The notes beneath the pieces were generated by a model that saw nothing but the letters and a program-made list of their open reading frames with translations, was not told the origin of the DNA and made no database searches. From contig JAFZRM010000030.1 of assembly GCA_017619885.1 (NCBI GenBank), forward strand, positions 1 through 45,430: DNA of 45,430 nt. The letters run 5' to 3'. Numbering within the stretch: the stretch's first letter is position 1; each line of letters starts with the position of its first letter. The translations under genes were made by a program, and so were the position numbers. Of this stretch, positions 5,899-12,194 are shown one piece after another. This DNA comes from Clostridia bacterium. Its GTDB lineage: Bacteria; Bacillota; Clostridia; Oscillospirales; CAG-272.

Positions 5899-7164
5899 AT
5901 GGAAATAAAACGCTGCGGTGATGACGTCGTCGATTACAAGATAGATATTTGTGATCCGTATTCATTCAGAAAGCTTAAGCAAGACGTCTTCAGCTCATAT
6001 CGAAACAAGAGAAATGCCGGGTTCGATATATCTAACGTATACGAAGACTTCGGAGAAATGCTCGTAATGGGTGTGAACACGCTTGTTCTTGATTACTATT
6101 ATCTGATCAGTGAGCTGTCAAAAAAATTCAAGGTCATAATGCTCGGAGAAGACTTCGGGCTCTCATCCGTTTCTTATCTTTTGGGGTTGAGTACCTATAA
6201 TTCCGGCCAGCTCAAAACAAACATTGAATACGGGCAGTTTTGGCCGTCGCGTCTCAGCTTTGGAATCGACAGAAGTAAAGCGTCGGATTTTGAAGAAGCA
6301 ATACGAGCTTTTGATACCGACGAGCACGGGAATCTGCCCGGTGTAAACGAAAAGTACGGCGAGGATTCAAACCGCGTTGAAACCATAAAGATGGGCCAGA
6401 GACCCGTAACGATCAAGGTCCGTTACATCGACACAAAGCGCTTTCGTTTGTTAACAGACAACGAACCAGATTATTCAGCTCTGCCTTTTCCGAAAATCGC
6501 AGCGGATACGTTATACGATCTGCTCGATGGTAAAACTGAATGTTATCGCATAGGAGAGGAATCTGCAGAATTGATCGAACCCCTCCTGACCATGTTCAAA
6601 CCTGAATCGTTTAAGGAGCTTGAACAGGTCTGCGCTCTTTTGCTGGCAAGCAGAGATTCGGCGGATGTCATACTCAAAAGGAGAGAATCCGGCTTTGAAC
6701 ACTGGGAGATGTACTTGTCAAAAGAGAGCTTTGCACGCTTTGTTTTCGGGATCGACGGCTATTATGATGACGCCGTCCGACTGATCTCAAGAATGGACGA
6801 CGGAACAGTCGGCGATGAAGATATCGAAATACTTAAAGATCTCGGTACAAGCGATGACGTGATCAACGATATCTGTAAGATGCGCAGCATTCCTTGCAGA
6901 GCTTTTGCAGCAGATCTTGCCAGGATCGTGTGGCGCAGTCAGCTTGAGAAAAACGCGATATCTGAGCTTCGTGACTTCTGGCCCTTGTCGGATGATCCCG
7001 ATACTGACGATCGCGAGCAGGAGATCCTTGACCGTATTCCCTGCACTGACGAGGGCATGAAAGCTGTAAAAGACTATCTCGAATCTTATGAAAGCTATCA
7101 GGCTCGCGATCGGTTAAGAGAAATACGTGAGGAACTGAACTGGCGGCGCTTTGCCGGCATATAA
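5899..7164 (+). CDS. hypothetical protein A (421 aa); by-eye resemblance to a truncated DnaE/PolC (Pol III alpha) palm-fingers core
   Basis: AAGGAG 7 nt upstream of the ATG. Motifs occur in DnaE order: GEDFGLSSVSYLLGLST (cf. GPGRGSAAGSLVAYALGIT), QFWPSRLSFGID (cf. RFLNPERVSMPDIDID), VRYIDTKRFRLLT (cf. VKFDFLGLRTLT), YRIGEES (cf. GVFQLES), FKPESFKELEQVCALLLASRD (cf. LKPDRFEDIIALVALYRPGP). The coding call is solid; the homology call is tentative. Confidence 0.8.
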   Translation: MEIKRCGDDVVDYKIDICDPYSFRKLKQDVFSSYRNKRNAGFDISNVYEDFGEMLVMGVNTLVLDYYYLISELSKKFKVIMLGEDFGLSSVSYLLGLSTYNSGQLKTNIEYGQFWPSRLSFGIDRSKASDFEEAIRAFDTDEHGNLPGVNEKYGEDSNRVETIKMGQRPVTIKVRYIDTKRFRLLTDNEPDYSALPFPKIAADTLYDLLDGKTECYRIGEESAELIEPLLTMFKPESFKELEQVCALLLASRDSADVILKRRESGFEHWEMYLSKESFARFVFGIDGYYDDAVRLISRMDDGTVGDEDIEILKDLGTSDDVINDICKMRSIPCRAFAADLARIVWRSQLEKNAISELRDFWPLSDDPDTDDREQEILDRIPCTDEGMKAVKDYLESYESYQARDRLREIREELNWRRFAGI

Positions 7165-7195
7165 AACTACAATACTTGAACAGGAGGCCTTTGCT

Positions 7196-8248
7196 ATGAT
7201 AAATATCAGCGATGATTTTGCTGACGTCAAACGTGTTGAAGCGTTCATTGACAAGCTTCCGGTACAGCCCGATCCTTCCGGTTTAATCGAGCTCAGCACG
7301 GACAACGGGAACAAGACGTATCGATATTACGTCGAAAACGACATACATAACGACAAGCTGTTGATCTTTGAGCCGATCAAAGGCATAAAACACGTCGTCT
7401 ATAGATCTCTGAGAGAAGATGAAAAACTGAAATATGCCGCAACTCCCGACGGTCGTGTTTTCTATTCAAATAACGCGCCCGGGAGCCACCGCATGTTTAT
7501 CAACAGGCTTCTCAGGCTGAATATACTGTCATGCTTCGACCCGAACGGGTTTGTAGCCGGATGCAATTATGATCCTATATGTTATCTCGGCGCAGATACA
7601 GATCACGTTGTATTTTCGGACGATAAAAACGTCATTAAGGCCGCGTCGGACGGAACGGAGACCGTTCTTTTCGAAGCTCCGTATGACTCTGATCTCTACC
7701 AGTATCTTGACCGCGACCATATTTTCGTATTTCACAAGAGTATACATAACAAAGTTAAGTACTGCGAATTTTATGACGAAACGGGAAAACTGCTGGATGG
7801 CCCTACCGACAGTTCCCGTGTTCTCGCTGTAGCGGGTTATCTCGTAAAGCTGATCATCGACGAAGACTCGTTTGTTCGCCTTATATTTAAGCGCCGCAGA
7901 AAAGCTGAGCAGAAAGTCGCCGACTTTCTCGAAAACGGATTTGAAGAAGATACCGTCACATACAACGTCTTATTCTCAATGATTAACGCGTGCACGCAGG
8001 CGCACGTCGTGACCGATCATAAGCTGCGTAATAATCTCGTGAAGGTTCTTAACTTTTACATACAGCTCGGGATCAGCGCCGATGTCTTCACCATGGCGTT
8101 TTTCGATATTTATAATCACTACGACGACTTAAACGAGGAAATGGTATCATGCCTCGAAAAGCTCGCAAACGACACGTCGCTTTCCTTTGAGGAAAGGCGC
8201 GCAATAGCTGCAAATGCTGATAAATTTATTAAATACAAGGAGAAATAA
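7196..8248 (+). CDS. hypothetical protein B (350 aa): beta-rich N-terminal half, helical C-terminal half
   Basis: AGGAGG 8 nt upstream of the ATG (MINISDDF). Same strand and composition as neighbours. No family recognised. Confidence 0.75.
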   Translation: MINISDDFADVKRVEAFIDKLPVQPDPSGLIELSTDNGNKTYRYYVENDIHNDKLLIFEPIKGIKHVVYRSLREDEKLKYAATPDGRVFYSNNAPGSHRMFINRLLRLNILSCFDPNGFVAGCNYDPICYLGADTDHVVFSDDKNVIKAASDGTETVLFEAPYDSDLYQYLDRDHIFVFHKSIHNKVKYCEFYDETGKLLDGPTDSSRVLAVAGYLVKLIIDEDSFVRLIFKRRRKAEQKVADFLENGFEEDTVTYNVLFSMINACTQAHVVTDHKLRNNLVKVLNFYIQLGISADVFTMAFFDIYNHYDDLNEEMVSCLEKLANDTSLSFEERRAIAANADKFIKYKEK

Positions 8249-11109: not shown

Positions 11110-11644
11110 TGTATTTCGCATTGTCGGATCCGCATTCGGGCCTGTTTTGGGATTTATCATACTTTATCTTTTTGGACTTAACTTTATGATGCGTTTTCTG
11201 ATTTACATCAACATCGCAATACACTATGATACGGGCTCTTATCCTTTATTCGAATGGTCAAACGAGCACCTGGCTTACCTCAATCTGGCACTGACAATAA
11301 TAATCGTTTTCTGCGGTATACGTTTTTTAACGAAGATCAAATCATATAAAACGCTGTCCGTTATCGCCTTGTCCTTCTGTGCGTTTTACACGATCATCTT
11401 CTTCGTTTTGAACACATACATTAAAGCGCTGAATGCAGAGCAAATATTCTACACTTGCGAACCGTTCTCATTCATATGGGACGAATACTGCCATGCCGAA
11501 TTATCATCTCCGAGAGGATGGGGACTGTTATCGTTGGCATTCTTCGGCATTTCCGTCCCGCTCTCGATCGTCATTGTCATAAAGCCGGTCATAAGCCGCC
11601 TTATCAATAAAATCGGAAAGAGGTTTTCACATGAAAAAGAATAA
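11093..11644 (+). CDS. small integral membrane protein E (183 aa, about 4 TM segments)
   Basis: Four long hydrophobic stretches. GGAGG upstream. The start overlaps the end of D by 17 nt. Confidence 0.7.
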   Translation: MKKHSDVFRIVGSAFGPVLGFIILYLFGLNFMMRFLIYINIAIHYDTGSYPLFEWSNEHLAYLNLALTIIIVFCGIRFLTKIKSYKTLSVIALSFCAFYTIIFFVLNTYIKALNAEQIFYTCEPFSFIWDEYCHAELSSPRGWGLLSLAFFGISVPLSIVIVIKPVISRLINKIGKRFSHEKE

Positions 11645-12194
11645 GCTGTTTCTTGTTTTAATTACGTCTGTCATACTGTGCGTCGTCCTGATCGTTTCTC
11701 TTCCCTCCTGTATCGTTACCTCAAAAAGCTCGGATACAACCGAAGAGAATACCGACGAGGGATCTGATGTAACCGTCGACATTGAAGGTTATTCATTTGA
11801 TGATATAGACGAGCTTCTCAGCGATGATTATTCTGAAGGAAACTATCAGCATAATCATAAAATTGAGATCTCGATCGAACTGGTAAAAGTACGGATCAAA
11901 GAGACGTATAACGATATACTTAAACAACTGGATGAGCTTTACGTCGCGATGTCCGAGAATGAGTACTTGCTTCACTATGAACGCGAAGACTATGACGCCC
12001 GCTTCGTCGTTCCGTTCAAGGAGTACTATACCAAGCAGATGAGCGTTCTGGCGGAGGGAGAAACCGCGCTTTCAGCGTTGGCCGGATTGTCTACGATGGG
12101 CGGAACAGCCGGGACTTCTATCGGATTGATGAAGATCTATACTCAGTATCGTAACTTTTATGATCTTCTGCTCGAGATCGATGGTATGTTTTAA
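11631..12194 (+). CDS. secreted/lipoprotein-like protein F (187 aa)
   Basis: MKKNKLFLVLITSVILCVVLIVSLPSC is a signal peptide with a lipobox-like LPSC, followed by an acidic linker. The start overlaps E by 14 nt. Confidence 0.7.
   Translation: MKKNKLFLVLITSVILCVVLIVSLPSCIVTSKSSDTTEENTDEGSDVTVDIEGYSFDDIDELLSDDYSEGNYQHNHKIEISIELVKVRIKETYNDILKQLDELYVAMSENEYLLHYEREDYDARFVVPFKEYYTKQMSVLAEGETALSALAGLSTMGGTAGTSIGLMKIYTQYRNFYDLLLEIDGMF

Follow-up and report, generated by a model that had tools for sequence, protein, structure and literature searches.

A compact operon of six orphan genes on a low-GC genomic island of a Clostridia bacterium, with an ASCH-like domain in one protein and a possible link to genome conflict

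Introduction

ASCH domains belong to the PUA superfamily, whose members bind RNA or DNA and often recognise modified bases, and stand-alone ASCH proteins have been noted next to type I restriction-modification (R-M) systems (PMC7641849; PMC12707154). Characterised ASCH proteins include the N4-acetylcytidine (ac4C) amidohydrolase YqfB, the ribonuclease ZmASCH and tRNA ac4C erasers, and the catalytic motif of YqfB consists of Lys21-x-x-Thr24-x-Arg26 plus Glu74 (PMC6972931). Stand-alone ASCH and EVE proteins found with type I R-M systems and in (PIN)-GNAT-EVE operons have been predicted to recognise nucleic-acid features in conflict systems; they occur mostly in archaea and proteobacteria, as small proteins of a single domain or fused to an HTH domain (Bell et al. 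2020, PMC7641849). Here we describe an operon of six genes, called A to F, in a window of 45,430 nucleotides (nt), by which we mean the whole stretch of DNA that was analysed (Clostridia bacterium, assembly GCA_017619885.1, contig JAFZRM010000030.1, positions 1 to 45,430), and compare it with these and other described systems.

The last ~115 amino acids (aa) of protein D, predicted to form a beta-barrel with two helices, resemble the ASCH proteins PH0355 (2z0t), PF0455 (1s04), ZmASCH, YqfB and TRIP4. Unlike the characterised ASCH enzymes, the domain of D, and probably of C, has no Lys-x-x-Thr/Glu-x-Arg motif and no match to the Pfam ASCH family. It also differs from ASCH proteins in being fused to N-terminal regions of 240-440 aa without known relatives, and in standing twice in tandem. 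Related loci recall the published ASCH/EVE associations in having R-M genes adjacent (locus L003) or a GNAT gene nearby (locus L009), whereas the proteins described here are large, Clostridia-specific and accompanied by B, with no R-M genes adjacent in the window. The association between ASCH-like genes and R-M genes was seen once and may be due to chance.

Defence systems that combine a sensor with a small transmembrane (TM) effector, such as CBASS or retron variants with TM effectors, offer another comparison. The operon resembles them in that cytoplasmic proteins are translationally coupled to small multi-TM proteins on an accessory island, but it has no recognisable signalling enzyme, nuclease or NTPase, and its TM genes do not accompany the core in other loci. 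Similarly, D has a reader-like domain, as in modification-dependent (type IV) restriction, but neither a nuclease nor an NTPase was detected in A-F with the family libraries. The recognisable parts of the operon are of known kinds, namely a divergent PUA/ASCH member, a PolC-like fold and small TM proteins on an island.

Organisation and control region of the operon

The six open reading frames (ORFs) listed in Table 1 follow each other on one strand with spacings of 31, 1, 13, -17 and -14 nt. Lengths and spacings are those given in the initial annotation of this DNA, and the same six lengths were found in independent public gene calls (same contig, independent assembly). In the NCBI records (MBO4868377-82, locus tags J5585_01560-01585) each of the proteins is annotated 'hypothetical protein'. 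A, B, C and D are real genes, because full-length homologues exist at 33-49% identity; E and F are predicted genes on the basis of ORF length, Shine-Dalgarno sequence and hydrophobic features. A Shine-Dalgarno sequence of the AGGAG type had been claimed for every gene, and GGAG-type sequences indeed precede A to E, but that of F is weaker (AAGAGG).

The single TTGACA-16-TATAAT promoter previously placed ahead of the operon was found again, and there are exactly two perfect promoters (12/12) in the 7.7 kb scanned. The proposed divergent pairing with a radical-SAM operon across a repeat-bearing control region is borne out by an opposed promoter and by two copies of a 34-nt direct repeat. The second of these copies supplies the -35 box of the A-F promoter, and the repeat is possibly an operator or a duplicated promoter. 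Additionally, a 12-nt inverted repeat connects the two divergent -35 regions. The region with the 34-nt and 12-nt repeats may be an operator common to both operons. The leader between the promoter and A is ~150 nt long, its folding stability is not unusual (z-score +0.79), and no Rfam family matched it.

No terminator-like site was found on the + strand from 5.9 to 12.2 kb, nor directly after F. With one strand, short gaps or overlaps, one promoter and no internal terminator, the sequence has the features of a single operon, and A-F are best explained, as far as sequence can tell, as a co-transcribed and translationally coupled block of lineage-restricted genes.

The GC content is 0.33-0.51 over the low-GC region, and mostly 0.52-0.65 in the flanks, with dips to 0.485 and 0.51. 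This profile agrees with the AT-rich island described earlier, and the best explanation is that this Clostridia metagenome-assembled genome acquired the low-GC island with A-F horizontally.

Table 1. Coordinates of the operon, its control region and other features of the window.
Feature	Position	Strand	Remarks
Gene A	5899-7164	+	421 aa, net charge -25
Conserved C-terminal motif of A	6976-7098		aa 360-400
Gene B	7196-8248	+	350 aa
Gene C	8250-9344	+	364 aa
C-terminal domain of C	8976-9329		~aa 243-360; probably ASCH-like
Gene D	9358-11109	+	583 aa
ASCH-like PUA-fold domain of D	10690-11037		~aa 445-560
Gene E	11093-11644	+	183 aa; starts inside the end of D, 17-nt overlap
Gene F	11631-12194	+	187 aa
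Sigma-70/sigma-A type promoter, TTGACA-16-TATAAT	5713-5740	+	12/12 consensus, ahead of the A-F operon
Divergent promoter	5539-5567	-	12/12 consensus, 17-nt spacer, ahead of the operon of the 470-aa ORF
34-nt direct repeat, two copies	5615-5648 and 5688-5721	+	from repeat search; each copy ends with TTGACA
12-nt inverted repeat	5556-5567 and 5713-5724		
Low-GC region	~2.5 to 17.0 kb		
Divergent operon	2696-5519	-	470-aa ORF, double zinc ribbon (DZR, E 2e-6), radical-SAM/SPASM gene
Zinc-ribbon ORF (CxxC...CxxC)	12307-12954	+	possible seventh gene; own Shine-Dalgarno sequence, 112 nt past F
M28-like peptidase	13004-13888		inside the low-GC island
DUF6273 protein	13905-14699		in the window
AAA+ ATPase with partial M41 (FtsH-type) peptidase domain	15325-16629	-	inside the low-GC island, next to the M28-like peptidase and the DUF6273 protein
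Giant ORF	20089-27690	-	2533 aa; Cna_B, Flg_new and beta-helix domains in public calls
Dockerin protein	28001-29350		dockerin, CAP and Ig-like domains

Rarity of the encoded proteins

A to E gave no match at E<=0.1 in Pfam, PHROG, PADLOC or NCBIfam, and searching these libraries with all homologues of A-F gave nothing usable. B was also without a match in the Protein Data Bank (PDB). None of the 5027 models of PADLOC-DB v2 matched A-F. The proteins lie outside described families and the operon matches no named system, so the initial description of orphan genes tied to no named system holds. Among the homologues the lone PADLOC match was the candidate-system protein PDC-M43B, given by a fragment of the B homologue in L003 (8499-8858; E 9e-4, 16 bits); as B of the window does not reproduce it, this match was treated as chance.

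Homologues of the proteins are extremely rare. Among 5.8 billion clustered proteins the family of D has three full-length members, and a full HMMER search of 1.84 billion representatives with a profile of these three returned seven proteins at E<=1e-3, two of them fragments and three matching in the C-terminal domain only. For A we found one true homologue (P0005, 37% identity) and one fragment, and a word-based search with C returned C alone. No relatives of A, B, C or D were detected by tblastn in 72,556 plasmids, and neither tblastn of D nor blastn of the complete operon detected any in 50,697 phage genomes. IMG/VR contigs scanned with patterns for A, C and D, and 185,579 species-representative genomes scanned with motif patterns, yielded none, and the sole return of a metagenome scan was the contig of the D homologue P0002, which was already known.

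These searches bear on the possibility that the locus is the remnant of a prophage or integrative element, with E and F as superinfection-exclusion proteins and A-D as early or accessory phage proteins. F has sub-threshold matches to two PHROG families without assigned function (E 3e-4 and 5e-3), genes near the operon match PHROG peptidase and DUF6273 families, and the low-GC island would suit such an origin. However, the matches of F may be driven by its signal peptide, the phage and IMG/VR searches just described found nothing, and there are no structural, packaging, lysis or integrase genes in the island. We consider a prophage or element remnant the most improbable of the explanations discussed here.

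ASCH-like domains in D and probably in C

D consists of a poorly modelled N-terminal region of ~440 aa with many invariant motifs (e.g. FPEPEDLP, ERSY and SWTG.R), followed by the ASCH-like domain. A profile of this domain gave six non-significant matches among PDB sequences (E 0.4-1.1), the best of which was 2z0t (PH0355; E 0.42), and 1s04 (PF0455) was among them with E 1.1. In the AlphaFold2 model of D the pLDDT is 66-84 in residues 450-560. The Foldseek comparison that had been suggested for the predicted structures was run for D against the PDB and returned only ASCH proteins in ranks 1-14 (best E 6e-4, probability 1.00, TM-score 0.66 on the target), among them PH0355, PF0455, ZmASCH, YqfB, EF3133, PF0470, AF2351 and the ASCH protein of L. 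crispatus. The McrB N-terminal domain followed at rank 17 and the ASCH domain of TRIP4 at rank 27. As the profile matches and Foldseek are two independent routes, we conclude that the C-terminus of D is an ASCH-like PUA-fold barrel. In the predicted model it can be superposed on solved ASCH domains, and we assign it to them by fold with moderate confidence.

The resemblance of the proteins P0009-P0011 (326-444 aa) to D is limited to the last ~140 residues of D, and they share with it the motif NFIT.S...K.TYQIV.R..Y....E.v.dLG.EalGF...ALK. In one related locus (L009, 106-2757) P0009 (328 aa, with a D-type ASCH-like C-terminus) is followed by two ORFs and then by a GNAT acetyltransferase gene. 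In another (L011, 1-9335) P0010 joins the ASCH-like domain to C-terminal zinc ribbons, and very large Tubulin_2 and VWA genes, a TatD DNase and CvpA are found in its surroundings.

C is built of an N-terminal region, an acidic linker and a C-terminal domain. The motifs of this domain occur in the same order as in D (KIGN[FY], [TI]YQIV.R..Y, V.[LV]K), with an acidic insertion in C; in detail they read KIGN[YI], [IT]YQI[VI]SRP.RY and V.VKR. An hmmsearch for homology between this part of C and the D-type domain gave E 2e-4 and 1.5e-5 (10-sequence database). Comparison of C with the D-type domain by hhalign gave a probability of 83% (E 8e-6 over 34 columns), whereas the full-length profiles reached 2% only. 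A nine-sequence alignment of the domain that includes C and D has colinear motifs, and its only invariant residues are three, N, Q and Y. Of seven D-type sequences, six keep the Glu of G-[TSIV]-E-x-x-G, which judging from the alignment might correspond to Glu74 of YqfB. C thus probably ends with an ASCH-like domain. The initial annotation could place none of B, C and D; D, and probably C, can now be called ASCH-like at the C-terminus, and B is still without a match.

With such domains, C and D could belong to cellular RNA metabolism, as RNA-binding or RNA-modifying ASCH proteins (ac4C erasers, ribonucleases) that act on host tRNA or rRNA, which would make the operon a housekeeping unit of accessory nature. 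The activities of YqfB, ZmASCH and the tRNA ac4C erasers (PMC6972931) and the position of P0009 three genes from the GNAT acetyltransferase gene speak for this, but nothing in the aligned domain corresponds to the catalytic Lys-Thr-Arg residues of YqfB. Both the sparse distribution, with the seven profile matches and the empty genome scan given above, and the island location would be unexpected for housekeeping genes, and we regard this explanation as very unlikely.

Conserved order of B, C and D in a related locus

Using tblastn, we found homologues of B (38-40% identity, in two frames), C (33%) and D (44%) on the contig of P0003 (L003/L004), in the same order and with the same spacing as in the window. 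Homologues of A, E and F were not detected there by tblastn, and no relatives of E and F were found in any related locus. In the B homologue (7747-8861 in L003) a frameshift near 8430 leaves two ORFs, of 269 and 120 aa, and L003 and L004, two independent assemblies, agree in this. This B is either decaying or its two halves function as separate proteins. In the window, the corresponding parts of B are ~225 aa at the N-terminus and ~120 aa at the C-terminus. In L003 the stop codon of D overlaps the start of a gene for a 98-aa protein with two TM segments, which is followed by a gene for a 95-aa TM protein. The layout of D, E and F is thus repeated there without homology to E or F.

The other relatives stand apart from these genes. 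D is separate from the other genes of the operon in L008 (the contig of P0002) and in the fragment L014; in L008 the 327 nt upstream of D, up to the contig start, are non-coding in all frames. The A homologue is solitary (L005-L007), with GGDEF, flavodoxin-like and HD-domain genes as neighbours. The suggested check of whether all six genes co-occur in the same order in other genomes had a mixed outcome: B, C and D are syntenic in one other lineage, whereas A, E and F are not, and D is also found apart. The conserved functional core is best explained as the B-C-D triad and not as all six genes.

The same observations raise the possibility that the operon is a mosaic and not a functional system, in which A, the B-C-D genes and E/F are unrelated, lineage-specific genes collected behind one strong promoter, each with a role of its own. 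The solitary A homologue, the separate D genes, the lack of relatives of E and F in the related loci and the disruption of B in the sole other syntenic locus would all fit. Against this, the spacing is very tight (gaps of 1 and 13 nt, overlaps of 17 and 14 nt), as is typical of co-translated partners, the order and spacing of B, C and D are kept across 33-44% identity, and C and D have a domain in common, as paralogous subunits often do. We consider a mosaic somewhat unlikely.

Contexts of the relatives

In L003 the type I R-M genes hsdM, hsdS and hsdR end 850 nt upstream of B. In L008, D (P0002) lies ~4 kb from Maff2, TrbL and PrgI/VirB4-type conjugation genes, and a DUF6273 neighbour is common to L008 and the window. 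These contexts fit accessory, mobile or conflict DNA. The suggested check for neighbouring defence genes thus points to the L003 relatives with their type I R-M genes, and not to the operon in the window.

Such neighbours would also suit counter-defence or establishment cargo of a mobile element, in which the acidic cytoplasmic proteins A-D would not defend the host but shield incoming or resident mobile DNA, for example by masking or mimicry of nucleic acids or by binding restriction or replication factors of the host. Besides the conjugative transfer module next to P0002, the R-M genes next to the B-C-D homologues and the low-GC island, this would suit the net charges of A-D (-14 to -25) and the PolC-like, apparently non-catalytic A, which could decoy replisome partners. 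However, no similarity to ArdA, ArdC, KlcA or Ocr was found in Pfam or PHROGs, the plasmid, phage and IMG/VR searches returned no relatives, transfer genes and an integrase are not visible in the window, and E and F would have no obvious role. On balance we hold this explanation to be unlikely.

Genes A, E and F

Based on its predicted model (mean pLDDT 58; 76-89 for residues 220-345), A was compared with the PDB using Foldseek. The five best matches were all PolC structures (3f2b, 3f2c, 9qpc, 9qrl and 9qrn; E 9e-4 to 4e-2), and the sixth match had E 1.7. The superposition with PolC is poor (global TM-score 0.29; TM-score on the query 0.24-0.30, rmsd 10-24 A), and against viral structures nothing was found below E 0.8. 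PolC and DnaE differ from A (421 aa) in size, being >1000 aa; as 421 aa leaves no room for them, A is without PHP, exonuclease, clamp-binding and OB domains. No conserved acidic triad was identified in A.

At the level of sequence, A has no Pfam match even at E<=10, and neither PolC nor DnaE was among its matches to PDB sequences, the sole one being a non-significant match to topoisomerase V (HhH)2. A colinear map of A, and of the N-terminus of D, onto the motifs of E. coli DnaE was drawn by eye, and top matches in hhalign seemed consistent with it. For A the hhalign score against E. coli DnaE was equalled by 46/60 shuffles, which is the null level, and Smith-Waterman segment alignments reached z<=1.3. 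The mapping onto DnaE was therefore rejected, and only the Foldseek result of A stands. A polymerase-like N-terminal region in D was likewise rejected, its DnaE hhalign score being equalled by 19/60 shuffles. Of the earlier view of A as a stripped C-family polymerase, the structural resemblance to PolC remains, but the sequence statistics are at the null level. We describe A as having a PolC-like fold, at this stage a model-based and unconfirmed assignment, and as probably non-catalytic.

The motif DFWPLSDDPD..DREQ.ILDRIPC[TS].EG near the C-terminus of A is almost identical in P0005 and far more conserved than the remainder of the protein. From its conservation, it may be a partner-binding peptide.

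E has ~4 hydrophobic segments that are predicted to be transmembrane, in agreement with its initial description as a 4-TM protein. F begins with a signal or anchor segment, and the rest of it is an acidic domain. Lipobox rules (PROSITE PS51257, G+LPP) follow the pattern [LVI][ASTVI][GAS]C, in which Pro at -2 is disallowed, and G+LPP also rejects Ser at -1. The corresponding sequence of F reads ...IVSLPSC27, with Pro at -2 and Ser at -1. The signal-like segment described earlier is thus present in F, but the LPSC lipobox described with it is non-canonical because of the Pro at -2, and its status as a lipoprotein is unproven.

A possible conflict module

We tentatively favour the reading that the operon encodes a nucleic-acid-sensing conflict module, centred on B, C and D, on a mobile island and with variable small membrane proteins, because the island, the R-M and conjugation contexts, the tandem ASCH-like paralogues and the coupling of D to membrane proteins agree. 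It is a possible rather than a probable reading. C and D would bind a nucleic-acid feature via their ASCH-like barrels, and their N-terminal parts would assemble a complex with B. The small membrane proteins translationally coupled to D would act as the output at the envelope, either perturbing the membrane or causing exclusion, with E and F in this role here and the unrelated 98- and 95-aa TM proteins in L003. A would be a degenerate Pol III-alpha/PolC-like protein added in this lineage, which could have DNA or a partner in the replisome as its binding target. Such a module might act in defence or in counter-defence.

Several observations weigh against a conflict module of this kind. The evidence that the operon forms a system is thin, since the B-C-D synteny rests on one other lineage, in which B is frameshifted. 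In L008 there is no C gene immediately upstream of D and no small membrane gene after it, and in L014 the DNA after D is AT-rich and non-coding, again with no coupled membrane gene. No effector domain (nuclease, NTPase or toxin) was recognised in any of the proteins with any library. The pLDDT of the complete AlphaFold2 model of D is low, at 53, and confidence in its ASCH fold is therefore only moderate. In Pfam at E<=0.1 there was no match for D, P0002, P0003 or P0009-P0011, the domain reaching no Pfam threshold, and the K-x-x-[TE]-x-R motif is absent from the first strands in the nine-sequence alignment. The domain assignment of C draws on ~35 aligned columns and colinear motifs. No boundaries of the island were located in the window, neither a tRNA nor an integrase nor flanking direct repeats being found, and no known defence gene adjoins the operon there. 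As the family is extremely rare, co-occurrence statistics are impossible.

A more specific form of the proposal is an undescribed immunity or counter-immunity module with a B-C-D core, tandem divergent ASCH-like readers, A, E and F as lineage-specific additions and a membrane output, in which A would be a miniaturised, catalytically degenerate C-family polymerase serving as the DNA- or replisome-binding subunit. We consider this combination distinctly unlikely.

If the triad is functional, it would be a new architecture among PUA-like readers in genome conflicts, with a large N-terminal module joined to a divergent ASCH barrel, two of these in tandem and a third partner. A, if the assignment is true, would be the first stripped-down Pol III-alpha/PolC-like protein outside replication. 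The reach of these findings is limited to a handful of Clostridia metagenome contigs, probably from rumen or gut, with no cultured host known. The main value at present lies in a small and well-defined orphan set, MBO4868377-82, with two structural leads.

Surrounding genes of the window

The 470-aa ORF of the divergent operon is without a family, and the operon with its radical-SAM/SPASM gene could be a peptide-maturation cluster. Downstream of F, the zinc-ribbon ORF has 138 codons, one in-frame TAG at 12721-12723 and then 71 further codons, so that it is a pseudogene with a nonsense mutation or else a gene expressed by read-through. As no terminator-like site was found after F, it may share the transcript of A-F.

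Outside the island, the giant ORF is probably a surface adhesin, judging from its predicted domains. The domains of the dockerin protein listed in Table 1 suggest a cellulosome-type Clostridia host.

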